DNA of 36,993 nt, from the NCBI GenBank assembly GCA_964458825.1, contig CAYWLE010000001.1, positions 1 to 36,993 of the forward strand, given 5' to 3'. Numbering within the stretch: position 1 is the first letter of the stretch; the number at the start of each line of letters is the position of its first letter. This stretch comes from an uncultured Oscillospiraceae bacterium. GTDB taxonomy: Bacteria; Bacillota; Clostridia; Christensenellales; Aristaeellaceae. This document shows, piece after piece, positions 14,074-29,331 of the stretch. Both the position numbers and the translations under genes were made by a program. Below the pieces are notes generated by a model. It was not told the DNA's origin, searched no databases, and worked only from the letters and a program-made list of their open reading frames with translations.

Positions 14074-14529
14074 ATGAAAACTGCGCGCCACAACCTGATA
14101 CTGGAAATCATCGAGGATAAAGACATCGAAACGCAAGAAGAGCTTGCCGAAGAGCTCAAGAACCACGGTGTGAAGGTCACGCAGGCCACCGTCTCCCGGG
14201 ATATCAAGGAGCTGCGCCTCCTCAAGGTGCTCTCTGAAAACGGCGGCTATAAGTATGCCACTGTGGAACGGGCGGAAAAGGGGCTCAACGATCGCTTTAT
14301 CCGCATCCTCACCGAGTCCATCATCTCCATGGAATGCGTCGGCAACCTGATGGTTATCAAGACCCTCTCCGCCAGCGCAAATGCAGCCTGCGAGGCCATC
14401 GATTCCATGAAGTGGAATGAGGTTCTCGGCACCATCGCCGGCGATAATACCCTTCTTATCATCGGCCGTTCCCCCGAAGCCATCGATACCATCCAGCAGC
14501 GCTTCAATAGCCTCATCAAGCGCGGCTGA
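14074..14529 (+). CDS. argR: arginine repressor
   Basis: Start chosen at ATG 14074 (AGGAGGAAG RBS). The winged-helix N-terminus reads RHNLILEIIEDKDIETQEELAEELK..VTQATVSRDIKEL. The C-terminus contains GTIAGDNT. Confidence 0.88.
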   Translation: MKTARHNLILEIIEDKDIETQEELAEELKNHGVKVTQATVSRDIKELRLLKVLSENGGYKYATVERAEKGLNDRFIRILTESIISMECVGNLMVIKTLSASANAACEAIDSMKWNEVLGTIAGDNTLLIIGRSPEAIDTIQQRFNSLIKRG

Positions 14530-14604
14530 CCCGGCCTCGGCTAACCACCACCCATAACCAACCACGACTCAGCCATCCCCCCACGGAAGGGGAGGTAGAT
14601 CAGC

Positions 14605-16299
14605 ATGCTTCTGGAACTGACAATCAAAAATATCGCCCTCATTGAATCGCTGCGCATCGAATTTGCTCAGGGATTCAATGTGCTTACGGGTGAAACGGGC
14701 GCGGGCAAGTCCATCGTCGTCGATAGCGTAAACCTTGCCCTCGGCGGTCGGGCAGATCGGGATATGATTCGCACCGGCGCGGATAAGGGCGGCGTGCAGG
14801 CCGTCTTCGATATTGCAGATAACCCGGCCGCCCTCGCCATGGCGGAGGAACTCGGCGTCGATGCAGACGGCGGGCTCGTTTCCGTTACCCGCGAGCTTAG
14901 CCGCAGCGGCCGCAATATCTGCCGCATCTCCGGCGTGTTGCTGCCCCTATCAGCCCTAAAGCAGTTCACTGCCCTTCTCGTGGATGTCCACGGTCAGCAT
15001 GAGCATCAGGCGCTCATGGATCCTAAGCGCCATATGGCGTTCCTCGATGCCTTCGGCGAAGAGCCGCATCGCTCAGCTATCTCCGCCGTCCGCGAGGCGC
15101 ATGCCCAGCGCGCAGCCACAGCCAGCCAGCTCCGCAGGCTCCTTAGGGATGCCTCCGAAAAGGAGCGCCTTATCGATACCCTTCGCTATCAGACACAGGA
15201 GATATCCGCCGCCCGCCTCAAGCCCGGCGAGGAGGAAAAGCTGGAAAAGAAGCTGCGTATGCTGGAAAATGCCGAGCGCGTCCGCACGGGCGTGGAGGAG
15301 GCATATGCCCTCACCTATGGCGGCGGTCGCGGCATGAGCGCTCAGGAGGCGCTCGTCCGTGCCAGCGCAGCCCTCGAAGCCATCTCCAGCCTTGACCCAC
15401 GCTTCCAGAAGCTCGCCGGCGAGCTTAAGTCCCTCTATTATGGCGTGCAGGATGCCGGCGTGCAGCTTCAGGCGCTCAATGAGGAAATGAACTTCGATCC
15501 CCGCCTCATGGATAAGATATCCGAGCGGCTCGACCTCATCTCCCGTCTGGAGCGCAAATATGGCTCCACCGAGGAGGAGGTCATCGCATTCGGCGAGCAG
15601 GCAAAGGCTCGCCTCAGTGAGATCGAAACCGGCGAGGAGCAGATACTTGCCCTCAAGCGGCAGCTCAAGGCGGAGGATAGGGCGCTCAGAGCCGCCTGCG
15701 ATGCGCTCAGCCAATCCAGACATGCCCTCGCCAGCGAGCTGGAGCAGGGCATCCTCGCACAGCTGAGCGACCTCGGCATGGCTCGCACCCGCTTCTCGGT
15801 TAGCTTCGTCCCTCTGGATAAACCAACCGCAGATGGAGCTGAAGCCATTGAGTTCCTCATTGCACCCAACCCCGGCGAACCGCTCAAGCCTCTGGCGTCC
15901 ATCGCCTCCGGCGGCGAGCTTTCCCGCATGATGCTTGCTCTCAAGGCGCTGGCGCTGGATCGCGGCGGCGTGGATTCCATGATCTTCGATGAAATCGATA
16001 CCGGCGTGTCCGGCCGCATGGCGCAGGTCGTGGGGGAGAAGATGCAGCAGATCGCCGCCAAGAAGCAGGTGCTCTGCGTCACCCACCTGCCCCAGATCGC
16101 CGCGCTGGGCGACTGCCACTTCCGCGTGGAAAAGCATACCGATGGCGAGCGCACCCAAACCAACGTGGTTCGGCTCGATCGCGACGGACGCATCCACGAA
16201 TTGTCGCGGCTCGTCGGCGGCGCAGAGGATAGCCAAAGCTCCCTCAGCCATGCCGCCCATATGCTCGATCAGGCACGCCGTCCAGCCAAGCAGAGCTAA
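14605..16299 (+). CDS. recN: DNA repair protein RecN
   Basis: 564 aa with Walker A GETGAGKS, a long coiled-coil middle, the signature SGGELSRMMLALK and Walker B MIFDEIDTGVSG. Confidence 0.92.
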   Translation: MLLELTIKNIALIESLRIEFAQGFNVLTGETGAGKSIVVDSVNLALGGRADRDMIRTGADKGGVQAVFDIADNPAALAMAEELGVDADGGLVSVTRELSRSGRNICRISGVLLPLSALKQFTALLVDVHGQHEHQALMDPKRHMAFLDAFGEEPHRSAISAVREAHAQRAATASQLRRLLRDASEKERLIDTLRYQTQEISAARLKPGEEEKLEKKLRMLENAERVRTGVEEAYALTYGGGRGMSAQEALVRASAALEAISSLDPRFQKLAGELKSLYYGVQDAGVQLQALNEEMNFDPRLMDKISERLDLISRLERKYGSTEEEVIAFGEQAKARLSEIETGEEQILALKRQLKAEDRALRAACDALSQSRHALASELEQGILAQLSDLGMARTRFSVSFVPLDKPTADGAEAIEFLIAPNPGEPLKPLASIASGGELSRMMLALKALALDRGGVDSMIFDEIDTGVSGRMAQVVGEKMQQIAAKKQVLCVTHLPQIAALGDCHFRVEKHTDGERTQTNVVRLDRDGRIHELSRLVGGAEDSQSSLSHAAHMLDQARRPAKQS

Positions 16300-16707: not shown

Positions 16708-18882
16708 ATGAAGAATAGACAAAGCGGCGCTTCGGCAGGAAATTGCCTGCCCAGCAGCCTTCAATATCGTAAGCAGCATAAAGTACTGGAACCTGCGCTG
16801 GTTCTGCTGGCATTCCTGCTGGCGATCGCGGTGGTTCAGCTTTCCATATCGAAGTATTCCGTCAACAGCGCCTATGGTATAGCCCAGCTTGCCGCCCGGC
16901 AGGCAGCCGCCCAGTTCCAGCAGATCATGGAGGGCAGCTTCCGCGAGCTTACCATCGCAGCCGATGCCTTGCAGACTGCCGAGGCAAACCAGACCGCGCC
17001 CGACCTGCGCAGCACCCTGCTGGGCGACCTCGTTGGCGGCACTTCCCTTGAAAATATCGCATTGATCGAGGGAAATACCCTCACCTACGCCAATGGAAGC
17101 ACAGCCGAAACGCAGGAAACAAAGGTTTATATCGTCTATCGCCGCGATGGCGTGAGCGGCAAGATCATTACAGAGGATAGCGGCGCCATCGAGCTTCGCG
17201 TGCCGGTGGATGTGCAGCGCGAGCTGGTTGGCTGGCTGGATTTGGAGAGACTGGATCAGCAGCTGCTCGGCATGCTGGATGGCAGCTATAGCTATGCCCT
17301 CTATAATTCTGCCACCGGAAAATACCTCGTCAACCGCAGCGATTTTGAACAAAAGCGCTATTATGATACCCTGCTTGATATCGATGTGGACGGCAGCGCC
17401 GCCGCCCTTATGACCTCCAGCGAGGCTCAGGCAAGGGTTCGAATCGGCGGCGAGTCGATCTACATTGCCCAGTGCCCCAGCGGCATACAGCCGTGGTGCG
17501 TGGCTCTGATGCTGCCGGAGGAGCTTGCTTCGACGGAAAACAGCCATATCCTGCTGTGGCTGCACGTTGCAAGCGCCGCCTTGCAGCTTGGCTTGCTCGC
17601 TTACGCGGCGGTTTACCTCGTCCGCAGCTGCTCCCGGGAGAAGAAGATCTGGCTCCAGCGGCGTCGGATGGGCGTTGCAATGCTGGATAGGCTCGCCAAC
17701 GATGCCTCTCTGGTGATCTGCGCTTACAGCCGCAGCGAGGATAGGATAAAGGATTTCCACGAGGGCTTCAGGCTCAACGGCTGCGCCGATCATGAGCCGC
17801 CCAAGAGCATAGAGGCGCTTTCCAGCCAGTATGGCATAGCTGAGGATGATGTGGAGCAGCTGCGCGAGAGCCTGCGGGAGTGCCGCAGCGGTCTGTGTTC
17901 GGAGCTGAACCTGAATGCCTCGGCGCAGGATGGCGAGCATCTGCTGCGCATAGAGATGCAGTGCATGGAGGACAGGCAGGACTGCGTGCTGCTTTCCCTG
18001 CGGGATTGCACGCTGGATATGGAGCGTGAGGATGTGCTGCTGGCCGAGGAGAGCTTTCGGCGGCGCATGCAGGGCAAGGCTATGAGCATATGGCAGATCG
18101 ATGTTGCCCGGAATCGCTGGAAGCTGACGGGCGGCAGCGTGCCGGATGCACTGCGCAGGCTGGGCGTCAACGGCGAATGTCGCGATTACATGTGCGACCT
18201 TGCCGGCGCTCTGCGGGAGTACATCGAGGCGAACGACTACGAATGCTGTGCCGAACAGATGAGCGTGGAGGGGCTGAGCAGGCTCATGCGCACCGGCGGT
18301 CACCAGACCACGCTGGAGTGCCGTGCGCATTCCCTAAAGAGCGGCGCTTACGAGTGGCACAGGCTGCTGGTTCGCGTATACAGGCATCCTGAAAAGGGTG
18401 AAATGATCGCCGATCTCTATGTAATGAATGTGGATGCGGAGAAGAATGCCGAGCTGGAGCGGCAGGAGCGCGCCCGCGTGCTTCAGCAGACCCTGACGGC
18501 CATCAGCGGCATCTATAACGGTCTTTACTATGCGGAGCTGGATATGGATAGGTGCTATACGGCAAAGGCCGTTGGCGGCAGCATTTCCAGCCAGCTGAGC
18601 CAGAGCTATCGTGGCATGGTGGACGCCTTCGTGGCTGGCGATGTGCATCCCGAGGACAGGGAAGCGATACGGCAGCTGCTGGATCCCTATCATCTGCGCA
18701 GGCGCATGACGGAAAACTCCCATCTGGTTCGCCATGAATATCGCAGGCGTGTGGGTGAAAATTATGAAACCGCCGCCATCATCGTGCAGGCTGCACGATT
18801 CGAAAATGGCACTGTGCGCGATATCGCCATCGCCATGCGCCGCTATACCGAAAAGGCAGAAAAGGGTAATATGTCGATCTGA
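16708..18882 (+). CDS. membrane sensor protein: TM, ~240-aa Cache-like ectodomain, TM, three PAS-like cytoplasmic modules, no recognisable output domain
   Basis: 724-aa ORF with TM1 ALVLLAFLLAIAVVQL and TM2 ILLWLHVASAALQLGLLAYAAVYLV. The cytoplasmic part has repeated PAS-like ends such as EWHRLLVRVYRHPEKGEMIADLYVMNVDAEK and YETAAIIVQAARFENGTVRDIAIAMRRY. I saw no GGDEF, EAL, HATPase or HTH motifs. The RBS is weak. Confidence 0.7.
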   Translation: MKNRQSGASAGNCLPSSLQYRKQHKVLEPALVLLAFLLAIAVVQLSISKYSVNSAYGIAQLAARQAAAQFQQIMEGSFRELTIAADALQTAEANQTAPDLRSTLLGDLVGGTSLENIALIEGNTLTYANGSTAETQETKVYIVYRRDGVSGKIITEDSGAIELRVPVDVQRELVGWLDLERLDQQLLGMLDGSYSYALYNSATGKYLVNRSDFEQKRYYDTLLDIDVDGSAAALMTSSEAQARVRIGGESIYIAQCPSGIQPWCVALMLPEELASTENSHILLWLHVASAALQLGLLAYAAVYLVRSCSREKKIWLQRRRMGVAMLDRLANDASLVICAYSRSEDRIKDFHEGFRLNGCADHEPPKSIEALSSQYGIAEDDVEQLRESLRECRSGLCSELNLNASAQDGEHLLRIEMQCMEDRQDCVLLSLRDCTLDMEREDVLLAEESFRRRMQGKAMSIWQIDVARNRWKLTGGSVPDALRRLGVNGECRDYMCDLAGALREYIEANDYECCAEQMSVEGLSRLMRTGGHQTTLECRAHSLKSGAYEWHRLLVRVYRHPEKGEMIADLYVMNVDAEKNAELERQERARVLQQTLTAISGIYNGLYYAELDMDRCYTAKAVGGSISSQLSQSYRGMVDAFVAGDVHPEDREAIRQLLDPYHLRRRMTENSHLVRHEYRRRVGENYETAAIIVQAARFENGTVRDIAIAMRRYTEKAEKGNMSI

Positions 18883-18902: not shown

Positions 18903-18939
18903 AAAAAGGAGCTAAACCAATATGGTTTAGCTCCTTTGC
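18903..18939. terminator. bidirectional terminator between the convergent sensor gene and the ECF operon
   Basis: AAAAAGGAGCTAAACC-aatat-GGTTTAGCTCCTTT forms a 12-13 bp perfect stem. A T-run follows on the - strand and a weaker T tract on the + strand. Confidence 0.8.
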
Positions 18940-18944
18940 TGCGC

Positions 18945-19679
18945 CTAGCAGCCATATTTGATCCTGATGCGGTCGAGCTTGCGGCCAAAGGGTCGCGAGA
19001 TGAGGTTCAGGAAAACCACGTTGGATACCGCATAGATAATGGTATAGGGCAGGGCGGTTGCCAGCGCGGCAAGATAGAGGCCGAGGTTGAAGCTGCCGTT
19101 GTACCACGTGACCGTCCAAACATCCATCACGAAGGAGTAAGCTATCCCGGCAAACACGCCGTAGAGGCTCATGACGATACGGCTTTTGCGTATCGGCTTG
19201 GCAAGCAGGCCGGCAAGCAGCCCGATCAGCCCCCACGAAAGCATCTGAAACGGCGTCCAAGGTCCTTGTCCGGCATAGAAATTCGATATCAGCGCCGAGA
19301 GCGCGCCGGTGAGGAAGCCTGCCTCGCCGCCGAGATAAACCGCCGTAATGACGACCACCGCCGTCACCGGCTTGAATGCCGGTATCACGGAGAAAATGAG
19401 CCTGCCAAGCACCGATAGCGCCGTCATTACCGCCACGAGTATCATCCGCCGTGAGCCGGTCTTCCGCCGCTCATAGCCGCAGCAGAAGAGCAGTATGGAC
19501 ATCAGCGTAACCAGCAGCGAGGTGAGGGCGTAGCTCCTGCGTCCCGGGCCCACAGAGAAGCCAAGCACCAAGGCAGGGATCAAAATAAAGGGCAGTATGA
19601 TGCCCAGCGCCCGCCGCAGCCGCTTGCTTCTGATCACGGGCAGGCGAAGCTCTGGCCGATGGAAGGTGATCTGCTTCAT
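18945..19679 (-). CDS. ECF transporter substrate-specific (S) component, predicted corrinoid-specific by context
   Basis: 244 aa with 6-7 TM segments and an S-component-like core (FKPVTAVVVITAVYLGGEAGFLTG...GQGPWTPFQMLSWGLIG). ATGA overlap with the upstream ATPase gene. Confidence 0.65.
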   Translation of the reverse strand: MKQITFHRPELRLPVIRSKRLRRALGIILPFILIPALVLGFSVGPGRRSYALTSLLVTLMSILLFCCGYERRKTGSRRMILVAVMTALSVLGRLIFSVIPAFKPVTAVVVITAVYLGGEAGFLTGALSALISNFYAGQGPWTPFQMLSWGLIGLLAGLLAKPIRKSRIVMSLYGVFAGIAYSFVMDVWTVTWYNGSFNLGLYLAALATALPYTIIYAVSNVVFLNLISRPFGRKLDRIRIKYGC

Positions 19680-21304
19680 CTGTGACCGCCATTTCTGCGG
19701 CAGAGCGCCGCTGCATCCTCCGCCGTGGCTACGCCGGTATACCAGCCGCGACAGATGCGGTTTGCGGAGGTGGTGTAGAAGCTGTTCGCATCAAAGAAGC
19801 TGCGCGGCAGATCCTCCGATACGATCTCACCCCGGAAAAAGAGCGCGCATCGATCGGCACACTTGGCGGCAAACTCCACATCGTGGGTCATGATAAGCAC
19901 GGTAACGCCATCCGCCTTCAGCCGTTGCAGGATATCCAGTACGTGCCTCTGGCTGTGTGCGTCGATGCCCTTGGTTGGCTCGTCCAGCAAAAGCAGCCGG
20001 GGTCTGGATGCAAGCACCTTCGCAAGGGCAACCAGCTGCTGCTCGCCGCCGGAGAGATCATAGGGATGCAGCTCCAGCAGGTGATCTAGGCTATAGGGCA
20101 GGGAGGCAGGGTCGCAGCCAACCTCCTGTAGCTCCTCGCGCACGGTCATCTTCAGGAAAACGGTCTGTACGTCCTGCGGCAGCATGGCAACGCACTCCCG
20201 ATAGAGGGTCTGACCGCGGTATTTCTCTATCCTCTGGCTGAATATGCGCACCGAGCCGCTGTAGGCATGCAGAAGCCCCGCGCAGAGCTTTAGCAGCGTG
20301 GATTTGCCGGATCCATTTGCGCCGAGGAAGCAGAATATCTCCCCGCAGCGCACGCTCAGGCTGAGGTCGCTCAGTACGTCTGGCAGCTCCCGTCCATAGC
20401 GGAAGCATATGTTCTTCAGCTCGAGGGCTACTTCCTTCGGGCGCTGGGGAGCCTCGATGGGCAGGCTGGATACCTTGTTTGCATAACCTTCCCGCACAAA
20501 GCGCCGACCCTCCCGCACGGTAATGGGGCAGGCGCCGCTTCCATCCAGCGAATGGAAGAGCCGAACCGCGCCGGGCATGGCGTCCAGCAGGCTTGGGTTG
20601 CTGCGCAGCCGCTCGCAAGCGGCATGAGGCGGAAGATTAAGGCTGAGGCTGCCGTCTTCCAGAACCAGCACACGGTCTGCCATGGGCAGCGCTTCCTCCA
20701 GCCGATGCTCGATGAGGATAATGGTAAGCCCCATGTCCTGATGGAGCTTGCGAATGGTTGCCAGAAAATCCGAGGCCGCGATGGGGTCGAGCTGGGAGGT
20801 TGGTTCGTCCAGCAGCAGTATGTCCGGCTGGGCAACCATCACGGCAGCAAGGTTCAGCAGCTGCTTCTGACCGCCGGATAGCTGGGAAACATCCCGCTCA
20901 AACCAGTCGGCGATGCCAAAATAGCTCGCCATCTCAGCCACGCGACGGCGGATAACGCTCTGCGGCAGAGCCAGATTTTCCAAGGCGAAGGCAAGCTCGT
21001 GCCAAACCTTGTCGGTCACAAGCTGCTGTTCCGGGCGCTGCATAACGTAGCCAATGCGGGCGGCGGAGATACCCTCGTTCATATCCTCCACAGGCTGACC
21101 AAAGCAGTAAATGCTGCCGCTGCGCTCGCCGAGGGGAGCCAGCTCCCGCTTGAGCATGCGCATGAGGGTGGATTTGCCGGAGCCGGTGGCCCCCATCAGC
21201 ACGATAAAATCGCCCGCCTCAACGCTGAAGCTGACGTGCGATAGTATGTCCCTCTGTGCTGCCGGATAGCGGAAGCTCAGATCTTCGACTTTAAGAATTT
21301 CCAA
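19676..21304 (-). CDS. ecfA: fused tandem ECF/ABC ATPase (EcfA-EcfA')
   Basis: Two NBDs are present. One carries GATGSGKST/LSGGQKQ/LLLDEPTS and the other GANGSGKST/LSGGEQQ/LLLDEPTKG. Start set at TTG 21304 (MEILKVEDLSF, GGAGGAG RBS) instead of the track start 21451, which would overlap ecfT by 175 nt. Confidence 0.88.
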   Translation of the reverse strand: MEILKVEDLSFRYPAAQRDILSHVSFSVEAGDFIVLMGATGSGKSTLMRMLKRELAPLGERSGSIYCFGQPVEDMNEGISAARIGYVMQRPEQQLVTDKVWHELAFALENLALPQSVIRRRVAEMASYFGIADWFERDVSQLSGGQKQLLNLAAVMVAQPDILLLDEPTSQLDPIAASDFLATIRKLHQDMGLTIILIEHRLEEALPMADRVLVLEDGSLSLNLPPHAACERLRSNPSLLDAMPGAVRLFHSLDGSGACPITVREGRRFVREGYANKVSSLPIEAPQRPKEVALELKNICFRYGRELPDVLSDLSLSVRCGEIFCFLGANGSGKSTLLKLCAGLLHAYSGSVRIFSQRIEKYRGQTLYRECVAMLPQDVQTVFLKMTVREELQEVGCDPASLPYSLDHLLELHPYDLSGGEQQLVALAKVLASRPRLLLLDEPTKGIDAHSQRHVLDILQRLKADGVTVLIMTHDVEFAAKCADRCALFFRGEIVSEDLPRSFFDANSFYTTSANRICRGWYTGVATAEDAAALCRRNGGHR

Positions 21305-22155
21305 CGGATCATCTCCTCCACTTCCATTATAACGGGCAAAAGGCTCAGCAGCGCATAGGCGATGGTCGCTGCGATTGCCAGCGGCGTGGGCGCGGGCATG
21401 GCAAAGCTCGGATAATAGCTGCAAGTCAGGCTGCCCGAGGCCGCCGCCCATATGGTGACGCTGGAGAGCAGCAGGCAGAGCAGGCAGGCAAGCCCATCCT
21501 TCATTCGAAAGTGAAAGAGGGCAAAGCGCGTGCGCCTGCCAATGCCGTAGCCGCGGGCGGACATGGAATCAGCGGTAATCACGCCGTTCTCCAGCGCCCA
21601 AGAAACCAGCACAGAGAATATGCGTACCTCGCCGCGAATGCGGTCAATGAGGTTTTCTTCCCGGAACAAGCCGAGCGCCCTCTGCGCATCCCGCACCCGC
21701 TTTGCCTGTTGGCGAAGCAGGGGAATATAGCGCAGGGCAATGGAGAGTATCAGCGTGAGCTTGGGCAGTGCCGAACCAAATACATAGAGCAGCTTGTCGC
21801 TGGTCATGATCTGCTGAAAGGAGCGGAACCAGTAGAGCGCCGATAGCAGCATCAGCCCGAACACAAGCCCGTAGAGCACGGCTTCAAGGGTGATGGGATT
21901 ATCATTCAATATAAAAAGCACGCTGCTGCCCGCATGTGAGAATATGGGGTTGAGCAGCACCGACAAGCCAAATAACATGAGGTAGCCTGCATGCTCCTTC
22001 AGCCGTGTGTCTGGATTGCGCAGCAAATAATAGCTGAGCGCGCCGATGAGGGAGATGAGCAGCATCGCCGGGTTCATCAGGAACATGGCAATGCCCGCCG
22101 TCAGTATCAGCCAAAGAAAGGCGGCGATGGGGTTCAGCTCAGCCAGTGTGTTCAT
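21277..22155 (-). CDS. ecfT: ECF transporter transmembrane (T) component
   Basis: Start set at ATG 22155 (MNTLAELNPIAAFLWLIL), giving an ATGA overlap with the upstream stop. Polytopic membrane protein with CbiQ/EcfT-like ALRYIPLLRQQAKRVRDAQRALG and ADSMSARGYG. Confidence 0.8.
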   Translation of the reverse strand: MNTLAELNPIAAFLWLILTAGIAMFLMNPAMLLISLIGALSYYLLRNPDTRLKEHAGYLMLFGLSVLLNPIFSHAGSSVLFILNDNPITLEAVLYGLVFGLMLLSALYWFRSFQQIMTSDKLLYVFGSALPKLTLILSIALRYIPLLRQQAKRVRDAQRALGLFREENLIDRIRGEVRIFSVLVSWALENGVITADSMSARGYGIGRRTRFALFHFRMKDGLACLLCLLLSSVTIWAAASGSLTCSYYPSFAMPAPTPLAIAATIAYALLSLLPVIMEVEEMIRWKFLKSKI

Positions 22156-23720
22156 TTCAGATCCTCGCCATTTGAAAGTGTGTATTGCCAGAGAACCACG
22201 TCGCCATCCTTGAGCACGCAGCTCTCGCAGCCCACGGAGGGGAAGACTCCGTTTACGGAATACATCCAACCGGACTGGGAGCCAAGGTCAAATTCATAGA
22301 GGTTGGCAATGCCGTTGACATACGCCATGCCCGCCGTGGCTCCGCTGTGCTCCAGCTGGAGATGATGCTCCTTGGCTGCGCGAAGAAGCGCGTCAAGCAC
22401 CGTTTCACCCTCCGCAAAGGGTACGTCGCAGGCGGGCAGGATCACGCCGTCCTCTGGAGTCACGCCGTTTGTACCCCTGCCGGCCACGGTATCGCAGCGT
22501 ATGGCAAGGCTGACTGTGCCGGCTGGGTCGGCTACGGTCTGCGGCGTATAGTAGCTCGAGGTTGGCTGGATATCAATCATGGTCACTGCAGCGGCAAGTA
22601 GCAGGCACACCAGCGCGGTGCTGAGCAGGCGCTTGGCACGGCCGTGCCTTTTTGCAAGCATAAGTATGACGCCGATGATGGCAAGCAGGAGTATGGCTGC
22701 ATATGCCCATAGCTTCCAGCCAAGCTCTGCCTGAAGAGCCACAAGAGCGCTTGCATCGATGCTTTGGGCAGCCACGTCCCGCAGGGCATAGAGCGGCGAT
22801 GCAGCCTCGATGGATGCAAAGGCAGCCAGAGCCTGAACCGTCGCCGTGGCGTTTGCATCTCCACCGAGCTGGTGGGCAAAGGAGCCGTCCGGCAGCCGGT
22901 GGGCAAGTATCGCTTCGGCGATGGTATTGCCGTTCTTTATAAAGCGCTCGTCGGCGCTGGCATCAATGCCGAGGGAGGAGAGGGCGATCAGCACCTGACA
23001 GGCGCTCTCGCAGTTCTCCACGCCGTAGCTGGCATAACCGCCGCTTAGCTTCTGTGCGCCGGAGAGAAAGCCAAGCCCGGATTCGATGGCATCGGCAACC
23101 TCGGCTTGATAAGCGGAACCATCATAGCAGGCAAGCGCCTGCAAGCACATGGCGGTGACGTCTGCATCGGAGTAATTGCCGTTTACAGCCCAGCCGCCGT
23201 CCTCCTTGCGCAGGGCTAGCAGCTGCTCGGCCAGCTTGTCTGCGCTCCAAAGCTCGGACGGAGCGCCCGCATTGAGCAGGTGCAGCCCGTAGATATAGCT
23301 CATGATGCCCATCTGACCCACGGCTGCGTCCACCATATCGGCGGTCACGTATTCCCGTCCGCCGCAGGCGATCAGGGTGAGCATGGCGCGCATGCGGCTG
23401 GATGGATTGCTCAGCTTGCCTTCCTCCAGAGCCTCCCGCAGGGCGCGTGCATAGGCGGCGGAATCAAAATCCACGCCGAGGCGGCTGAGGGCAAAGATAT
23501 AGTGGTCCGCCGAACCGTTGACCTCGGGCGCGAGGATATTATCCACCCAAGCCTGCAAGCTGCGCTCGCCGCGGGCATGGGTGATAACGCCGTCGATGAT
23601 GCTTGCGGCGTCATCGGCGGCGTGGGCAGCGCTCATTGCGGGCAGCGCGGCTGTCAGCAGCGCGCAGGCAAGAACGAGTATCCAATAAAGCTTGTTTTTC
23701 ACTAGAGAGCTGTGCTTCAT
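22152..23720 (-). CDS. secreted alpha/alpha-toroid (prenyltransferase/terpene-cyclase-like repeat) domain + two-TM hairpin + C-terminal DUF4430 (transcobalamin beta-domain-like) protein
   Basis: 522 aa with signal peptide KLYWILVLACALLTAALPAMSAAHA. Repeats include EDGGWAVNGNYSDADVTAMCLQALACY, GGYASYGVENCESACQVLIALSSLGI and LPDGSFAHQLGGDANATATVQALAAF. The TM hairpin is LWAYAAILLLAIIGVILMLA-KRHGRAKR-LLSTALVCLLLAAAVTMI. The C-terminus reads GTVSLAIRCD...ETVLDALLRA...SGWMYSVNGVFPSVGCESCVLKDGDVVLWQY. Confidence 0.7.
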   Translation of the reverse strand: MKHSSLVKNKLYWILVLACALLTAALPAMSAAHAADDAASIIDGVITHARGERSLQAWVDNILAPEVNGSADHYIFALSRLGVDFDSAAYARALREALEEGKLSNPSSRMRAMLTLIACGGREYVTADMVDAAVGQMGIMSYIYGLHLLNAGAPSELWSADKLAEQLLALRKEDGGWAVNGNYSDADVTAMCLQALACYDGSAYQAEVADAIESGLGFLSGAQKLSGGYASYGVENCESACQVLIALSSLGIDASADERFIKNGNTIAEAILAHRLPDGSFAHQLGGDANATATVQALAAFASIEAASPLYALRDVAAQSIDASALVALQAELGWKLWAYAAILLLAIIGVILMLAKRHGRAKRLLSTALVCLLLAAAVTMIDIQPTSSYYTPQTVADPAGTVSLAIRCDTVAGRGTNGVTPEDGVILPACDVPFAEGETVLDALLRAAKEHHLQLEHSGATAGMAYVNGIANLYEFDLGSQSGWMYSVNGVFPSVGCESCVLKDGDVVLWQYTLSNGEDLK

Positions 23721-23771
23721 TGCTTAATCAGGCTTGGTTGCTTGGTTGCTTGTGTTATAGAGGAAGCGGGA

Positions 23772-24443
23772 TCAGCCGATCTCCACGCGGCAAACCGGGG
23801 GAACGAGGATCATGCTGTCGCTGCGGGCGGAAATGACGCAGGAAGCATCCACGCTGAAGCTTACCTTGCCCTCGGCGTCGGTCACGAGGTCGGTATCCAC
23901 GCCGTCAACGGTGATGATCGCGCCCTCGAGGGGATAGGTCAGAGGATTCCAGTTTGCATCGAAGCCATAGGCGGTCAGGGTAAGCTCTGCCTCGCCAGCC
24001 TCGCCGGTGAGGATGCCGCAGTCAAAGAAGCAGTAGGTGTCCGTCCAGCTGGTGAGATCCTGATAGCAGTAAGCATTGATCATGTCGCCGTCCGCCACGG
24101 TATCCGCGAGGGAGAGGGAGGCTACGTTGTTTACATAGTAGCCATAGGAACCGCCGTTCGCCACGCCCCAGAGCTTGCTCAGGCTAAGACCATAATCGGA
24201 ATCCACAGCCTCATAACCCTCGGCAGCGCCGCCGGGATAGGCAGCCTCGTGGGCGAGGCAGAGCGCATCGGAAATGGTGAGCATGCCGTCGCCGTCGGTA
24301 TCGCTCATTTCAACGGGCAGGTAGGCAAGCTGAACGCCGTCGCTTGTGATGCTAACATAGACGGTTTCAGCCATGGCGCAGCCGCCAACGGCCAGCGCCA
24401 GAGCAAGGATGCTCAGGATAATTGCGCGTGCAGTGTTCTTCAT
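23772..24443 (-). CDS. lipoprotein with DUF4430-like domain (with embedded EF-hand/dockerin-type Ca loop) and C-terminal Ig-like domain
   Basis: 223 aa with a lipobox-type signal peptide (ILALALAVGGC). The sequence continues VYVSITSDG...DTDGDGMLTISDAL...GGSYGYYVNNVASLSLADTVADGDMINAYCY. Strong AAGGAGG RBS. First gene after the riboswitch. Confidence 0.65.
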   Translation of the reverse strand: MKNTARAIILSILALALAVGGCAMAETVYVSITSDGVQLAYLPVEMSDTDGDGMLTISDALCLAHEAAYPGGAAEGYEAVDSDYGLSLSKLWGVANGGSYGYYVNNVASLSLADTVADGDMINAYCYQDLTSWTDTYCFFDCGILTGEAGEAELTLTAYGFDANWNPLTYPLEGAIITVDGVDTDLVTDAEGKVSFSVDASCVISARSDSMILVPPVCRVEIG

Positions 24444-24505
24444 GGTTAGGTTCCTCCTTATGCTTGCTTTAGTTGCTTGCTTGAGCCAAAGCCTTGCTCA
24501 GAACA

Positions 24506-24546
24506 AGAAAAAAGCGCCACGCCGCCAAGCAGGCGACGATCAGCGC
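24506..24546 (-). terminator. riboswitch expression-platform terminator
   Basis: The - strand reads GCGCUGAUCGUCGCC-UGCUU-GGCGGCGUGGCGC followed by UUUUUU. It sits between the aptamer and the first RBS. Confidence 0.65.
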
Positions 24547-24599
24547 ACATCTCCGGCAAATACCTCCGCATCAGCCGTGCAAAGGCATATACCAAAGGC

Positions 24600-24775
24600 T
24601 GCGCTTTTCCTGCCCAAAAACGTAAGCCTCAGCCGCGATCAACGCGGCATCTTGCAGCAAAGCGGCAGGCGTCCCGACTCATGCCCCGCTGGGGCATTCA
24701 CGGTAATGGCGGTTGCGACGGTCTCTCACCGTACTTCCCCCGCTCGCTTTGCACAGGCTCAATACAAAAGCCTGC
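24600..24775 (-). promoter_or_regulatory. cobalamin (B12) riboswitch aptamer
   Basis: The - strand contains GGGAAGUACGGUGAGAGACCGU (24718-24739), compared with consensus AGGGAA..GGUG.AA.UCC. GCCAUUACCGUGAAUG follows. A B12-box-like GAGUCGGGACGCCUGCCG lies at 24663-24680, compared with AGUCAGGAUACCUGCC. Order and spacing fit RF00174. Not verified with a covariance model. Confidence 0.7.
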
Positions 24776-24779
24776 ATAA

Positions 24780-24808
24780 ACTCTAGCACATCGCCAATGA
24801 AAAGTCAA
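24780..24808 (-). promoter_or_regulatory. candidate sigma-A promoter of the riboswitch operon (TTGACT-17 nt-TAGAGT)
   Basis: The -35 is at 24803-24808 and the -10 at 24780-24785 on the - strand, immediately upstream of the riboswitch. Confidence 0.5.
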
Positions 24809-24937: not shown

Positions 24938-25690
24938 TCAATTGAAAAGCCTTGCCGGTCGCTGAGGCGTTTTCAGTGAGATGAGCGCCAACAGGATCAG
25001 ACCGAGGCTGAGCGCCAGATGCACAAGACTGCCGCTGAGCAGGTAAAAGATCAGCATCGAGCCGGCCACGAGCAGGCAGCGCGGTGCGTTTCTCCGGCGC
25101 AAGAGCAGGTGCAGTATGCGTGCGGCATGGCGTGTGCGCGGCTGGCTTGGCGCGGCTGGCTGGCTGCGCAGAATATTTGGATGCTCGCAGATGAGCTGGA
25201 CAAGCAGCGGCGCATCGATCACTGCTACCCGCGGAGCCTTCAGTTCGGCGGCGAGGGCGCGGCAGTCGGGACTTGCCTTGCAGCTTGCGCAGACCACCAT
25301 GCGCTCGGCATCCCTGTTCCGCCGCCATAGCTCAAATAGCGCCTCTGGCTGCAAATCGCAGGATGGATGCCTCTGAATGAGCTGCACCCGCCCAACCTCG
25401 CCATAGGCAAGCTTCACCAGCTGCTCGGCAGCGCTGCGGGCGGCGGACTCCTCCATGCAGGCAAGGGTCATGATGCTACCCCGAGCGCTGCGGCGCAGGT
25501 TCCGGCGGCGAAGCAGGGGCAGTCCCTGCACGGCTGCTGCAATGCGGCGAAAAATGCGTCCAAGCAGCACGATGCACAGCATGGCGAGGGCTGCGCTGAG
25601 GATGCGGTTTTTGAAGGTACGCTGAAAGAAAAAGTAAAATGCAGCGGCGAGGAGCAAGTCCAGCGCGGCACGATCAATTTTTTTGCCCAT
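24938..25690 (-). CDS. hypothetical membrane protein (2 TM, ~110-aa basic soluble domain, 2 TM)
   Basis: 250-aa ORF with an AGGGAGG RBS 6 nt upstream of the ATG. TM segments are LLLAAAFYFFF, ILSAALAMLCIVLLG, CLLVAGSMLIFYLL and LALSLGLILLALISL. No family was recognised with confidence. Confidence 0.6.
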   Translation of the reverse strand: MGKKIDRAALDLLLAAAFYFFFQRTFKNRILSAALAMLCIVLLGRIFRRIAAAVQGLPLLRRRNLRRSARGSIMTLACMEESAARSAAEQLVKLAYGEVGRVQLIQRHPSCDLQPEALFELWRRNRDAERMVVCASCKASPDCRALAAELKAPRVAVIDAPLLVQLICEHPNILRSQPAAPSQPRTRHAARILHLLLRRRNAPRCLLVAGSMLIFYLLSGSLVHLALSLGLILLALISLKTPQRPARLFN

Positions 25691-25818
25691 AGAAGCCTCC
25701 CTTTGCAGGTTTTTCAGTAAGTCTTGCCGAAATTAAATAGAATATACAGAAGCCAATTTAGCTTTGGTTCACATTGATGCATTAAGCTATTCTTATCGGA
25801 ATGAAAGAGGTGGTTGCC

Positions 25819-26970
25819 ATGCGGATCGGCATCATGGGCGGAACGCTCGACCCGGTGCATCTGGGTCATCTGGCAATTGCCCGCGCCGCGATGGAGCAGC
25901 TAAAGCTGGATGGCGTGATGCTGCTGCCCGCCGGTGATCCGCCCCACAAGGGAAACCTTGCCCCCAAGGAGGATAGGCTGGAGATGGCTCGTCTGGCTGC
26001 GGCAGAGCTGAACGGCGGCTTTGCCTGTGCGCTGGAAACGAGGCGCTCCGGTACGACCTACACCGTGGATACCCTCACCGAGCTGCGGGAGATGAACCCA
26101 CGCACGCAGTGGTGCTATCTGGTCGGCGCGGACACGCTGAAGGTTATAGATACATGGCGGCGCTTCGACGAGGTTGCCAAGCTGTGTGAGATCGCGGTGC
26201 TTGGCCGCGGCGCTGAACCTGCCGATCAGGCGCTGGCACGGAGCCTTGAGCAGCGCTACGGCGCGCAGATCCGTCTGCTGCCCGTGAGCGGCCCGGAGAT
26301 ATCCTCCACAGAAATCCGCCGCCGGGTGAACCATGGCTTGGATATCGGCGCTCTGGTTCCAGATAGCGTCGCGGCATACATCCGCTCCCATGGGCTCTAC
26401 CTCTGCGGCATGCAGCGAAATGAGCTTATGCAGGAGCTTCAGTCCACCCTTTCGCCGGGCAGGCTCCGACACACGCTTGGCGTGGCGGAAACGGCGCTTC
26501 GGCTGGCGGAGCGCTATGGCGTGGATGCAAAAAAGGCTGAGCTTGCAGCGCTTCTGCACGATTGTGCCAAGCACATGCCCGTCGAGGAGATGCGCGCGCT
26601 GGTAAAGCGGGGCTGCACCGACAGCGATGATGAGGAAATGGCAAACGAGCGGGTGCTGCATGCGCCGGCAGGCATGGTTTGGGCGCGTGAGCGCTTCGGC
26701 GTAAACGACCCGATGATCCTCTCCGCCATCCGCAGGCATACGCTGGGCGACCGGGGCATGAGCCCTCTGGATGCGCTTATCTACACGGCGGACTTTATCG
26801 AACCCAACCGCAAGCCCTTTGACGGGCTGGAGGAGGCACGGGAGCTTGCCGAGCATGATATCTTCGCGGCGGCGAGGCGCTGTGCGGAGCTAACCAACCA
26901 ATTTGTATTGAGCGGAGGCGGGAAGCCGCATCCGAAGACGCAGCTGATGCTGAATAACAGCAGCAAATAG
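25819..26970 (+). CDS. nadD: fusion of nicotinate-nucleotide adenylyltransferase (NadD) and YqeK-type HD phosphohydrolase
   Basis: Start chosen at ATG 25819 (AGAGGTGG RBS). The N-terminal half contains IGIMGGTLDPVHLGHL, the (H/T)xGH nucleotidyltransferase motif. The C-terminal half contains RLRHTLGVAETA...LLHDCAK...HAPAG...IRRHT, matching an HD domain of YqeK type. Confidence 0.85.
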   Translation: MRIGIMGGTLDPVHLGHLAIARAAMEQLKLDGVMLLPAGDPPHKGNLAPKEDRLEMARLAAAELNGGFACALETRRSGTTYTVDTLTELREMNPRTQWCYLVGADTLKVIDTWRRFDEVAKLCEIAVLGRGAEPADQALARSLEQRYGAQIRLLPVSGPEISSTEIRRRVNHGLDIGALVPDSVAAYIRSHGLYLCGMQRNELMQELQSTLSPGRLRHTLGVAETALRLAERYGVDAKKAELAALLHDCAKHMPVEEMRALVKRGCTDSDDEEMANERVLHAPAGMVWARERFGVNDPMILSAIRRHTLGDRGMSPLDALIYTADFIEPNRKPFDGLEEARELAEHDIFAAARRCAELTNQFVLSGGGKPHPKTQLMLNNSSK

Positions 26971-26985
26971 ACAAGGAGGAAGAAA

Positions 26986-27348
26986 ATGATCGATTCCAAG
27001 CAGCTTGTATTGAAGGCAGCAAAGATACTGGATGAAAAGGGTGCAAACGACATCGAGATACTGGAGGTAAGCCACCTGACCTCCATCACCGATTATTTCC
27101 TTATCGCCAACGGCAGAAACGTGCAGGCTGTGCGCACGCTGGCAGAGGATCTGGAGGATAAGCTTGCGGAGGAGGGCATCGAGCCGCGCCGCAAGGAGGG
27201 CGAGCGGGAGAGCAAGTGGATCGTGCTGGACTATGCCCACGTGATCGTGCATATCTTCCATCCCGACGAGCGGAAATACTATAACATCGAAAGGCTCTGG
27301 CAGGATGGAACCAATCAGATTCCCTTCATCCCGCTGGAAGGCAAATAA
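26986..27348 (+). CDS. rsfS: ribosome silencing factor RsfS (iojap)
   Basis: 120 aa reading LTSITDYFLIANGRNVQAVRTLAEDL...WIVLDYAHVIVHIFHPDERKYYNIERLW. Confidence 0.88.
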   Translation: MIDSKQLVLKAAKILDEKGANDIEILEVSHLTSITDYFLIANGRNVQAVRTLAEDLEDKLAEEGIEPRRKEGERESKWIVLDYAHVIVHIFHPDERKYYNIERLWQDGTNQIPFIPLEGK

Positions 27349-27402
27349 ACATATATAAGTATATTAAGGATAGGATCTGTTTCAAACCAAGGAGGCTGCT
27401 AC

Positions 27403-28722
27403 ATGTGCAAGCACGAACACAAAATATTCAATTCCAAATATGAGTGCATGAGCCGCGACGAGCTGATTGCCCACCAGAGCGCCAAGCTGCGCGATGTAGT
27501 GAAGCACGAGTATGAAAATGTGCCGCTCTACCGCGCCAGAATGGATGAAAAGGGCGTCAAGCCCGGCGATATCCGCACCATAGAGGATTTGAGATACCTG
27601 CCCTTCATCGAAAAGACTGACCTGCGCGACGAATTTCCTTATGGCCTGCTTGCTGTGCCGAGGGAGGAGATCGTGCGCATCCATGGCTCCAGCGGAACCA
27701 CCGGCAAGCCCATCGTATCCGGCTATACCCGGGGCGATGTGGAGATATGGAGCGAGATGATGGCGCGCACACTCACCGCTGCGGGCTGCGGGCAGGGCGA
27801 TATCGTGCAGGTTGCCTATGGCTTCGGGCTATTTACCGGCGGCTTCGGTGCCTATCAGGGTGCGGACAGGATCGGTGCCATGGTACTGCCCATGTCCAGT
27901 GGCAATACCCAGCGCCAGATTATGATGATGCACGATATGGGAACCACCATCCTCTGCTGCACGCCCAGCTATGCCACCTTCCTTGGCGAAACCATACGCG
28001 AGATGGGTATGGATCCCAAGAAGGATCTCAAGCTGCGTGCCGGCTGCTTCGGTGCGGAGCCTTGGACGGAGGCAATGCGGCAGAAGATAGAGGAACTGCT
28101 GGGCATAGACGCCTGCGATATCTATGGTCTTACGGAGATATGCGGTCCGGGCGTGGCCTACGAGTGCCTCGCCAAGAATGGCATGCATATCAACGAGGAT
28201 CACGTGATTGCCGAGATACTCGACCCTGCCACCGGCGAGCCGCTGCCCTATGGTCAGGAGGGCGAGCTGGTGTTTACCACCATTACCAAGCGTGGCATGC
28301 CCATGCTGCGCTACCGTACCCACGACCTGTGTACCCTGACGGATGAAAAGTGCGCTTGCGGCAGAACCTTTGCCCGCATGGGTCGCATCACCGGCCGTAC
28401 CGACGATATGCTCATCGTGCGCGGTGTGAACGTATTCCCCAGCCAGATTGAATCCGTACTGGTGAAGACCCATGGCGTGGCTCCCCACTACATGATCTAT
28501 GTGGATCGTGAAAACTCCAGCGATGTTATGGAGATACAGGTGGAGCTGACGGAGGAGATGTTCTCCGATACCGTGGGACAGATCGAGCAGGTGCAGAGAA
28601 GCATCTTCGAGGGCATCAAGTCGGTGGTTGGCGTGGCAACCAAGATCAAGCTGGTTGCTCCGAAATCCCTCCAGCGCTTCGAGGGCAAGGCAAAGCATGT
28701 AGTGGATCGCAGAAAGCTGTAA
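27403..28722 (+). CDS. paaK: phenylacetate-CoA ligase family (aryl/indole-acetate-CoA ligase) adenylating enzyme
   Basis: 439 aa with the AMP-binding P-loop IHGSSGTTGKP, YGLTE and DMLIVRGVNVFPSQIE. Confidence 0.85.
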   Translation: MCKHEHKIFNSKYECMSRDELIAHQSAKLRDVVKHEYENVPLYRARMDEKGVKPGDIRTIEDLRYLPFIEKTDLRDEFPYGLLAVPREEIVRIHGSSGTTGKPIVSGYTRGDVEIWSEMMARTLTAAGCGQGDIVQVAYGFGLFTGGFGAYQGADRIGAMVLPMSSGNTQRQIMMMHDMGTTILCCTPSYATFLGETIREMGMDPKKDLKLRAGCFGAEPWTEAMRQKIEELLGIDACDIYGLTEICGPGVAYECLAKNGMHINEDHVIAEILDPATGEPLPYGQEGELVFTTITKRGMPMLRYRTHDLCTLTDEKCACGRTFARMGRITGRTDDMLIVRGVNVFPSQIESVLVKTHGVAPHYMIYVDRENSSDVMEIQVELTEEMFSDTVGQIEQVQRSIFEGIKSVVGVATKIKLVAPKSLQRFEGKAKHVVDRRKL

Positions 28723-28795
28723 AGAGCGGCACTTGGGAATGAACATGAACAGCATCTAACAAGATACCCGACGGCAGATAGGGAGGCTTACGAAT

Positions 28796-29233
28796 ATGTT
28801 TATCAAGCAGATATCGGTATTTCTGGAAAACCGACCCGGCACCCTGCGCGAAATGACCAGCACGCTCGGCGAGGCGGGCATCGATATTCGGGAACTGAGC
28901 GTTGCAGACACTCAGAACTTCGGCATCGTGCGCATGATCATGCGCTCGGATGTGATCGATCCCACGATGGCTCTTTTGAAGAAGAATGGCTATACCGCGA
29001 GGATCAACCACGTGATCTGTGCGGAAATATCCGATGCACCCGGCGGGCTTACCAAGCTTCTCGGCATAATTGAGGATGCGGGGCTTTCCGTGGAATATAT
29101 GTATGACTTCCGCAGGAATGCCAGAGGCAACGCGTTGATGGTGCTCCGGCTCTCGGAAAACGACCGCGCCTGCAAGGTTCTGCTGGATGCCGGCGTGGTG
29201 GTGTATTCTCAGGAGGAAATTAATAAATACTAA
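28796..29233 (+). CDS. ACT domain-containing protein (tandem ACT), usual partner of PaaK-family ligases
   Basis: 145 aa. MFIKQISVFLENRPGTLREMTSTLGEAGIDIRELSVA forms one ACT unit. A second ACT-like unit reads ICAEISDAPGGLTKLLGIIEDAGLSVEYMY. Confidence 0.7.
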   Translation: MFIKQISVFLENRPGTLREMTSTLGEAGIDIRELSVADTQNFGIVRMIMRSDVIDPTMALLKKNGYTARINHVICAEISDAPGGLTKLLGIIEDAGLSVEYMYDFRRNARGNALMVLRLSENDRACKVLLDAGVVVYSQEEINKY

Positions 29234-29261
29234 ATTGCGGGATCAAGCCTGTGGATGGAGG

Positions 29262-29291
29262 GGGAGAGGCATTGCTCTCCCTCTGTCTTTT
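29262..29291 (+). terminator. rho-independent terminator after the paaK-ACT pair
   Basis: GGGAGAG-gcattg-CTCTCCC forms a 7-bp stem. TCTGTCTTTTG follows. Confidence 0.65.
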
Positions 29292-29331
29292 GCCTGCTAT
29301 TTGCCCGCTATATTGAAAGGATGGATCGATC

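Follow-up and report, generated by a model that had tools for sequence, protein, structure and literature searches.

The stretch of DNA analysed here, 36,993 nucleotides of contig CAYWLE010000001.1 from an uncultured Oscillospiraceae bacterium (GenBank assembly GCA_964458825.1; Aristaeellaceae in the GTDB lineage) and called the window at its full length, carries on its minus strand a compact operon of five genes behind a leader that resembles a cobalamin riboswitch. Here, we describe the gene content of this operon, the domain folds of its proteins and the conservation of operon and riboswitch across Clostridia. We consider it probable that the operon encodes a B12-repressed, dedicated importer for cobalamin or other corrinoids, an energy-coupling factor (ECF) transporter of the ECF-CbrT type that is assisted by two cell-surface proteins, which we call g1 and g2. 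This explanation is the best supported because the riboswitch is conserved, the S component of the transporter is CbrT-like, and g2 has a transcobalamin-like fold. The operon belongs to a kind that has already been predicted from genomes and partly studied, and that occurs widely among gut Clostridia, where its annotation is poor.

Relatives were collected by a profile search with g2 homologs in a species-representative genome collection, which found them in at least 531 stretches; all counts for related loci refer to the best 80 of these 531 stretches, labelled L0xx where a single one has to be named. All 80 fetched loci are from metagenome-assembled genomes (MAGs) of Clostridia, among them Oscillospiraceae, Lachnospiraceae, Ruminococcus, Acutalibacteraceae, Aristaeellaceae, and others, and the nearest to the window operon is L001, from an Aristaeellaceae MAG.

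Operon layout and the riboswitch leader

The operon forms a single compact transcription unit at 18905–24808 on the minus strand, with the following features in the order of transcription:

24780–24808, minus strand: promoter-like site of the sigma-70 type, TTGACT-17-TAGAGT with an extended −10 TG (consensus scan, 9/12 matches)
24647–24791, minus strand: candidate compact cobalamin-riboswitch aptamer of 145 nt (RF00174 alignment, 26.5 bits, E 9.4e-5 in a local search space of 651 nt, the stretch to which this E-value refers)
About 24509–24546, minus strand: intrinsic-terminator hairpin of the leader with U6, the putative expression platform (folding free energy, dG, −21.4 kcal/mol, z −3.0)
23772–24443, minus strand: g1, predicted surface protein of 223 aa (open reading frame and AlphaFold2 (AF2) model)
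22152–23720, minus strand: g2, predicted membrane-tethered transcobalamin homolog of 522 aa (DUF4430 match, AF2 model, Foldseek)
21277–22155, minus strand: ecfT, T component of the CbiQ family, 292 aa (PF02361)
19676–21304, minus strand: fused ecfA-ecfA′ ATPase, about 542 aa from TTG 21304 (two ABC_tran domains, TIGR04520)
18945–19679, minus strand: CbrT-like S component of 244 aa (PF07155, PF12822, PDB 6fnp_A)
18905–18937, both strands: perfect 15-bp hairpin in the 62-nt convergent gap beyond the S gene (dG −23.1 kcal/mol on the minus and −25.8 kcal/mol on the plus strand, z −6.9 and −6.2)

The promoter-like site sits immediately 5′ of the aptamer and may well function as the promoter of the operon. 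The leader terminator, which also appears when the entire leader is folded, lies about 65 nt ahead of the g1 start codon, and an AAGGAGG ribosome-binding site and then the start codon itself, at 24443, follow 3′ of it. The g2/ecfT junction (22155–22152) and the ecfAA′/S junction (19679–19676) are ATGA overlaps. The ATPase reading frame is open from 21451 and overlaps the 3′ end of ecfT; its start is likely TTG 21304, 28 nt before the ecfT stop, chosen because of the GGAGGAG-N8-TTG context. At the other end, the final hairpin has the tail UUUUUAU on the minus strand and only the stem-closing UUU on the plus strand; it is probably the operon terminator, and the convergent plus-strand gene at 16708–18882 probably ends there too.

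This layout agrees closely with a first-pass annotation made from the letters of the window. The promoter that it placed on the minus strand is found at 24808–24780 with the TG before its −10 hexamer, the leader hairpin with U6 is present and stable, the five tightly packed genes are borne out by open reading frames together with Pfam and NCBIfam matches, and the two ATGA junctions as well as the overlap of the fused-ATPase start with the end of ecfT can be read directly in the sequence. For the bidirectional terminator that it proposed, the strong 15-bp hairpin stands, whereas termination in both directions is presumed, with UUU alone on the plus strand.

The same gene set recurs in related genomes. 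In tblastn searches with the five window proteins, the full set was found in the order g1-g2-T-AA′-S in about 65–70 of the 80 loci, and in the alternative order T-AA′-S-g1-g2 in four; g1 adjoins g2 in about 73/80, and the S gene is linked to the genes of the module in about 64–68/80. Clustering of open reading frames gave the five operon genes as the only clusters conserved across the 80 loci, where database names are confined to “DUF4430 domain-containing protein”, “hypothetical protein”, and “ECF transporter S component”. When the same loci were examined for other genes that accompany the operon, for example those of B12-dependent enzymes or remodelling functions, a single recurrent one emerged, near the operon at variable position in 28/80 loci (e.g. 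L024 6903–7226); it encodes a small protein, about 107 aa long, with a homing-endonuclease-associated repeat (HNH_repeat, PF18780, E 2.6e-8).

All positions of the RF00174 model, 1–189, are aligned in the window aptamer, in which the P6 extension is reduced from 62 model positions to 9 nt. The motifs GGGAAGUACGGUGAGAGACCGU and GAGUCGGGACGCCUGCC, which the first-pass annotation had singled out as hallmarks of a cobalamin riboswitch, are present and lie inside this alignment. In the window the core reads GGGAAG..CGGUG..CCGUCGC and the B12 box AGUCGGGACGCCUGCC; the core GGGAA..CGGUG..CCG..GC and the B12 box AGUCGGGA..CCUGCC are contained in the full-length match, and the core columns are invariant in nine aptamers, eight of them at gathering level. 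Aptamers of the window's own clade (L001, L003) are compact too. Among the related leaders, those of the window's clade included, the P4 stem covaries (UACGG/CCGUC, ACCGG/CCGGC, GGCGG/CCGCC, UCCGG/CCGGA).

Upstream of the homologous operon and on its strand, RF00174 is matched at or above its gathering score of 31.5 bits in 8 of 17 short loci, with 37–103 bits, and a second batch of loci added one further gathering-level match (L064). A profile of the aptamer core, searched with nhmmer, has matches in 66/80 loci, always on the operon strand and 117–1345 nt before the first operon gene, the sole exception being a second match in L041. In all, a cobalamin-riboswitch core immediately precedes the operon, on its strand, in at least 67/80 loci, and several of the loci that lack a match are cut off upstream or contain a solitary g2. 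The co-occurrence of the gene set and B12 riboswitches in Clostridia, which the first-pass annotation had marked for a survey, is thus seen in these loci. In two loci (L037, L008) the riboswitch precedes g1 and g2 only and the genes that follow are on the opposite strand, and in two others separate cores precede g1-g2 and ecfT-AA′-S (L062, at 8913–8960 and 11744–11790; L074, at 8826–8871 and 11613–11659). Riboswitches that control g1-g2 alone or separately link these surface proteins to B12 in their own right, and not only as neighbours of a transporter.

Because the core is common to related loci, its upstream placement is conserved and P4 covaries, we conclude from sequence comparison that the window leader holds a genuine compact cobalamin aptamer that is under-scored by the Rfam models. 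B12-dependent regulation of the operon is well supported on the same comparative grounds. The cobalamin-riboswitch leader of the first-pass annotation thus stands on its motifs, its full-length alignment, and comparative support, although it misses the gathering score. Other RNA elements were seen in individual related loci, namely in L020 a pair of neighbouring Gut-1 RNA matches (18–101 and 150–231, minus strand) that lie upstream of the operon, and in L006 a T-box leader (10437–10680, minus strand).

Surface proteins, transporter, and neighbouring genes

The domain order of g2 is a signal peptide, an alpha/alpha toroid (about residues 38–305), a transmembrane hairpin (about 331–384), and a DUF4430/SLBB beta domain (401–514). 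DUF4430 (PF14478) matches residues 438–514 with 65 bits (E 8.5e-18; cut-off 23.8 bits). The full-length proteins g2 and g1 were modelled with AF2 and the models compared with the PDB by Foldseek. In the g2 model (predicted local distance difference test (pLDDT) score 84), long helices at 335–356 and 361–381 surround a Lys/Arg-rich turn, and the beta-grasp spans 401–514. Exactly two hydrophobic segments between toroid and beta domain are found in all g2 family members from the loci (79/79). If the basic loop is cytoplasmic, these two segments would place toroid and beta domain alike outside the cell. Places 1–15 of the Foldseek ranking are all taken by transcobalamin, haptocorrin, and intrinsic factor (E 9.9e-9 to 1.1e-6), which align across both domains with target TM-scores of 0.44–0.55 at 10–15% identity; terpene cyclases come next, at E ~1e-5. 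The beta domain by itself reaches a target TM-score of 0.75 against the human transcobalamin beta domain (5no0). As modelled, g2 is a bacterial transcobalamin homolog that is membrane-tethered via a hairpin in the interdomain linker, and by analogy with the mammalian carriers a corrinoid may be bound between its toroid and its beta domain.

At the sequence level the toroid is less distinct. Its Pfam matches to prenyltransferase and squalene-cyclase models are sub-threshold (20.5 and 20.0 bits, the former against a cut-off of 26.5), the g2 family profile matches squalene-hopene cyclases at E 1.5e-10, and no transcobalamin-family chain appeared in PDB sequence searches with g2, either as a single sequence or as a profile. 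The 522-aa protein of toroid and DUF4430 described in the first-pass annotation is thus confirmed, the DUF4430 domain by Pfam and the toroid through the model, and the expected structural likeness to transcobalamin, haptocorrin, and intrinsic factor extends over the full length; a match to Cobalamin_bind (PF01122), which had also been considered, was not obtained.

Residues 183–190 of g2 contain an invariant D185-x-D187-V-T189-A, which in the alignment falls on the catalytic DVDDTA (DXDD) of squalene-hopene cyclase, and the toroid also keeps a QxxDGGW-like repeat; these features may reflect no more than a common toroid fold, or else an acid-base site that has persisted outside the cytoplasm. 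We considered an active terpene cyclase and judged it unlikely, since DXDD is incomplete, the toroid is extracytoplasmic, and B12 carriers provide the best fold matches for the whole protein.

The second surface protein, g1, has a signal peptide with a lipobox-like VGGC22, an N-terminal beta-grasp-like domain, and a C-terminal all-beta domain that resembles CarboxypepD_reg, a family matched in this domain in 23 of 31 g1 homologs. Its model (pLDDT 89.6) gives the N-terminal domain the order beta-beta-alpha-hairpin-beta…beta. The signal peptide ends in L17-A-V-G-G-C22 and is directly followed by an AxA signal-peptidase-I site, A23-M-A25, which hardly varies within the family. Of 73 locus homologs, only 8 showed a lipobox-like Cys in a crude pattern scan, and at least 45 have instead a C-terminal anchor of PxTG, transmembrane segment, and basic residues; the short forms, that of the window included, are without the PxTG tail, and some of them have an N-terminal lipobox-like Cys. 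Surface anchoring of g1, as predicted from these signals, is clearer than its assignment to DUF4430.

A DUF4430-like domain had been assigned to g1, as a lipoprotein, in the first-pass annotation, and this domain was not detected by Pfam, NCBIfam, PDB sequence search, or Foldseek. Window g1 has no match in Pfam, NCBIfam, or PDB sequence searches, DUF4430 was not found by Pfam even in a scan of 31 homologs at E ≤ 5, and Foldseek with the whole two-domain model gave nothing below E 1e-3 and only weak Ig-like matches. What remains is a weak hhalign match, with E 0.019 and a probability of 2.5%, in which the g1 N-terminal domain and the g2 beta domain align end to end over 96 columns at 28% identity and which pairs TISDALCLAHEA with TVLDALLRAAKE and YGYYVNN..DGDMINAY with WMYSVNG..DGDVVLWQY, together with reciprocal hmmsearch matches that are sub-threshold and located in the expected regions. 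A profile–profile comparison of full-length g1 and g2 aligned only the signal peptides and was discarded. The order of secondary structure in the g1 N-terminal domain fits the transcobalamin-like SLBB clade as it is described in passages of Burroughs et al, 2007. A DUF4430-like N-terminal domain in g1 is plausible but unproven. Of the two transcobalamin-like proteins originally proposed, g2 is demonstrably one and g1 has been assigned to no family.

Two features of g1 homologs were noted in passing. Between strand 2 and helix 1, residues 48–59 form an invariant D48-x-D50-G-D52-G…D59 loop (DxDGDGxxTxxD) reminiscent of the calcium sites of EF-hands or dockerins, and EF-hand Pfam models weakly match several homologs. 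In L010 (8508–9998) and L022 (4709–6307) the g1 homologs are about 500 aa long, with the N-terminal domain tandemly duplicated.

The three remaining genes encode the transporter, and Pfam or NCBIfam cut-offs are passed for all three, in keeping with their identities in the first-pass annotation. EcfT matches PF02361 CbiQ with 35.7 bits (cut-off 25); the fused ATPase contains two ABC_tran domains (Pfam, E 2.3e-58) and matches TIGR04520 ECF_ATPase_1 with 327.9 bits (cut-off 315); the S component matches PF07155 with 50.5 bits (cut-off 26.7) and PF12822 with 40.1 bits (cut-off 30.7). Compared with the PDB, the S component finds CbrT (6fnp_A) at E 8.1e-13 as a single sequence and at E 4.7e-15 as a family profile built from 27 members, and the alignment of query residues 76–243 to chain residues 9–177 spans the whole CbrT chain. 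The next-best S component, 4hzu_S, follows at E 0.11 (single sequence) and 2e-4 (profile), and no other solved S component is among the matches listed. No curated CbrT model matched the S component, for which NCBIfam gives only riboflavin and folate S models below threshold. By the PDB comparison alone, the S component appears CbrT-like and nearer to CbrT than to S components of other specificity, so that its nearest solved relative is not from a family of different specificity, the outcome that would have spoken against the first-pass annotation. Cobalamin and cobinamide are implied as its substrates by the relationship to CbrT. N-terminal to the CbrT-homologous core are two additional predicted transmembrane helices (about residues 25–68), part of an N-terminal extension of about 75 residues that is conserved in the family. 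As far as sequence tells, ecfT-AA′-S is a dedicated group I transporter of the CbrT-type ECF class.

The genes on either side are of a different nature. The flank at 576–16299 is a housekeeping block with spoIIIAA/AE, xseA, dxs, a tlyA-like FtsJ gene, the NAD kinase gene, and recN; the flank at 25801–32100 holds nadD-HD, a phenylacetate-CoA-ligase-like (paaK-like) gene, pepF, and a gene of the choloylglycine (bile-salt) hydrolase family (31129–32100). These genes fit the chromosome of a spore-forming gut member of the Clostridia, as far as their predicted identities go. The open reading frames directly next to the operon, 16708–18882 (plus strand, 724 aa, convergent) and 24938–25690 (minus strand, 250 aa, hydrophobic, upstream of the promoter), have no Pfam match at E ≤ 1e-4. 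At the far edge of the window, a raiA RNA motif (RF03072; 36829–36993, plus strand) scores 118.5 bits, above the gathering score of 101.3, with its 3′ end cut by the window edge; it is the sole gathering-level Rfam match in the whole window.

Proposed corrinoid uptake and competing explanations

How might these parts work together? At low intracellular cobalamin the aptamer would be empty, the leader terminator would not form, and all five genes would be transcribed; a cobalamin-bound aptamer would favour the leader terminator and switch the operon off. Held at the membrane by its transmembrane hairpin, g2 would capture a corrinoid between toroid and beta domain in the manner of transcobalamin. 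The role of g1 could be that of a second capture or relay protein, lipid-anchored here and with a sortase-type or transmembrane anchor in most relatives. The CbrT-like S component would then receive the corrinoid from the surface proteins, and EcfT with the fused EcfA-A′ ATPase would power import. Three steps of this scheme are inferred, namely that g2 and g1 bind corrinoids, that the ligand is handed to the S component, and that the riboswitch turns the operon on and off as described. The first-pass annotation had likewise proposed corrinoid capture coupled to a dedicated ECF module; as an explanation this remains the best supported, while only g2 is transcobalamin-like and the arrangement had been recognised before.

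Several observations weigh against corrinoid uptake. The only experimentally studied operon with the same list of parts, that of L. sakei, is tied to heme uptake. In its sequence the g2 toroid resembles terpene cyclases more than transcobalamin, and g2 has no PF01122 Cobalamin_bind match at E ≤ 0.01. On the basis of its model, g1 appears to be without an assignable ligand-binding fold. The whole-window Rfam scan gives no RF00174 match at the gathering threshold; this default scan is silent on the aptamer because the 26.5 bits obtained in the local scan fall under the gathering score of 31.5. The closest relatives are sub-threshold as well (L001, 34.1 bits to RF01482, for which the gathering score is 50; L003, 21.5 bits). 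In six loci with sufficient upstream sequence, the riboswitch was not found at the thresholds used.

A more far-reaching version of corrinoid uptake, which we put forward only tentatively and regard as doubtful, holds that a capture relay is needed for ECF-type B12 uptake in gut Clostridia. In it, g2 would act as a hairpin-tethered transcobalamin and g1 as a hitherto unclassified co-binder made of a beta-grasp domain with a calcium loop and an Ig-like domain, and the corrinoid would be delivered to a CbrT variant whose extra helices dock the g2 hairpin. A contact between the extra transmembrane helices of the S component and the hairpin of g2 is pure speculation.

Among the competing explanations, the one that survives best, although we regard it as unlikely, is that the ECF-CbrT module imports alone and that g1 and g2 handle corrinoids otherwise, by discriminating between analogs, by sequestering them, as a surface store or in surface competition, or by enzymatic processing. 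The ECF-CbrT transporter of L. delbrueckii functions without an extracytoplasmic partner (PMC5997447), stand-alone riboswitch-controlled g1-g2 pairs exist (L037, L008), and Foldseek recognises no corrinoid-binding fold in g1. Enzymatic processing, in particular, could draw on the invariant D185-x-D187-V-T-A of g2 that aligns with the DVDDTA of squalene-hopene cyclase, but the third Asp of DXDD is a Val in g2, and in the whole-protein fold comparison the B12 carriers rank ahead of the cyclases. Tight operon linkage and the translational coupling of g2 and ecfT through their ATGA overlap suggest, moreover, that surface proteins and transporter are parts of one machine.

That the operon imports heme or another tetrapyrrole, with the transcobalamin-like proteins capturing heme, as proposed for Lsa1836–1840 of L. 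sakei, we consider hardly likely. When lsa1836–1840 was deleted, the cells accumulated 5- to 8-fold less heme, a loss reversed by complementation (bioRxiv 10.1101/864751), and the list of parts there is the same, with ECF S, AA′, and T components plus alpha-like and beta-like transcobalamin proteins. Here, however, a cobalamin riboswitch precedes the operon, and sometimes g1-g2 alone, in at least 67/80 loci, which counts against a heme importer because such an importer has no evident reason for repression by B12. The nearest solved relative of the S component is CbrT, and hemin is no competitor for uptake by ECF-CbrT (PMC5997447). The L. sakei S component is, according to its authors, without the cobalamin-binding residues (bioRxiv 10.1101/864751), and for this reason the L. 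sakei system may be a diverged branch.

There is only a very slim chance that the leader is non-working in this genome, decayed or a chance match, with the operon expressed constitutively or under other control: the sub-gathering scores of the aptamer and its closest relatives and several non-canonical pairs marked in P1/P2 of the alignment would fit, but the match is to the full-length model with a local E of 9.4e-5 (for the 651 nt searched), related loci have aptamers of 37–103 bits with this core in the corresponding place, P4 covaries in leaders that include those of the window's clade, and a strong terminator lies 3′ of the aptamer.

Relation to known systems

Cobamide acquisition shapes competition in the gut. 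To our knowledge, only Bacteroides (BtuB, BtuG, BtuH) and E. coli (BtuBFCD) provide well-understood cases, and the only biochemically characterised Gram-positive ECF-type B12 importer is ECF-CbrT, from a lactobacillus. ECF transporters operate, in the textbook view, without separate binding proteins. If g2 and g1 bind corrinoids, a B12-scavenging system could be assigned to a large share of gut Clostridia, ECF transport assisted by binding proteins would have a test case, and there would be a way to settle the conflict between a B12 prediction made in 2007 and the assignment of the L. sakei operon to heme. A capture relay that is needed for uptake would, if true, contradict the textbook view of ECF transport. 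The concept itself is not new and would leave a specialist unsurprised; the family offers a testable case for assisted ECF transport and for a bacterial origin of transcobalamin.

Bacterial proteins that combine a toroid with an SLBB domain and carry signal peptides or Gram-positive anchors were described by Burroughs, Balaji, Iyer, and Aravind in 2007 (PMC1796856), whose passages on them report operons with a second extracellular SLBB paralog and CbiO-like and CbiQ-like genes, note that the host genomes are usually without B12 biosynthesis, and predict the scavenging of B12 or its precursors. The window operon is of the same make, with a toroid and SLBB protein, a second extracellular protein, and CbiO/CbiQ-type genes. 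That work is computational only, and its passages on these operons mention neither riboswitch control nor a CbrT-type S component. In contrast to what these passages describe, a transmembrane hairpin lies between the g2 domains (79/79), and g1 is not detectably an SLBB paralog here.

Closest in its transporter is ECF-CbrT of Lactobacillus delbrueckii (PDB 6FNP), which Santos et al, 2018 (PMC5997447) showed to transport cobalamin and cobinamide, with hemin not competing; CbrT had been predicted as a B12 S component by Rodionov et al, 2009, as told in the same paper. Both systems have a T component, two ATPase domains, and homologous S components. They differ in that the window module is dedicated, contained in one operon (group I) and has a fused A-A′, whereas CbrT of L. 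delbrueckii shares a general module (group II), and in that the window S component has about 75 extra N-terminal residues with two transmembrane helices. The window operon also adds two extracytoplasmic proteins and a riboswitch, whereas cbrT lies in an nrdJ-cbrS-cbrT-pduO cluster (PMC5997447).

The L. sakei genes lsa1836–1840, auto-annotated as cobalamin transport, were assigned to heme uptake on genetic grounds by Verplaetse et al (bioRxiv 10.1101/864751), whose deletion gave a heme-uptake defect. As judged solely from the description in that paper, the likeness lies in the S, fused AA′, and T components and in exported proteins like transcobalamin alpha and beta, for which the authors propose an extracellular hand-off to S. 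The alpha-like and beta-like proteins are separate in L. sakei, whereas they are fused in g2 of the window; g1 is additional here, and a riboswitch is not mentioned in the L. sakei paper.

The 2007 prediction and the L. sakei study precede our analysis, and for that reason the claim of the first-pass annotation that this operon is the best candidate for a new system in the window was overstated; the arrangement had already been predicted for B12 scavenging in the 2007 passages (PMC1796856). Its further claim, that the arrangement had not been characterised experimentally, holds insofar as no report of corrinoid binding was found, but lsa1836–1840 was deleted and complemented, for heme. A full-text literature search, which did not cover subscription journals, returned no demonstration of corrinoid binding by such bacterial proteins and no account of the transmembrane-hairpin architecture of g2, of the g1 family, or of the N-terminal extension of the S component.

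In Bacteroides, BtuG and BtuH, encoded upstream of BtuB, follow an analogous logic in which accessory surface proteins encoded with a transporter capture cobamides amid the competition of the gut (PMC8941943), a comparison that is functional only. BtuG and BtuH belong to an outer-membrane, TonB-dependent context, and no similarity to them surfaced in general searches of the window proteins. In architecture, g2 is most like mammalian transcobalamin, haptocorrin, and intrinsic factor (PDB 2BB5, 4KKI, 2PMV), with which it shares an alpha6/alpha6 toroid followed by a beta domain. The mammalian proteins are soluble and work with endocytic receptors, whereas g2 is predicted to be tethered by its internal transmembrane hairpin. 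Should a capture relay of this kind indeed operate in gut Clostridia, the family would be a living representative of the bacterial lineage that, according to passages of Burroughs et al, 2007, gave animals their transcobalamin.

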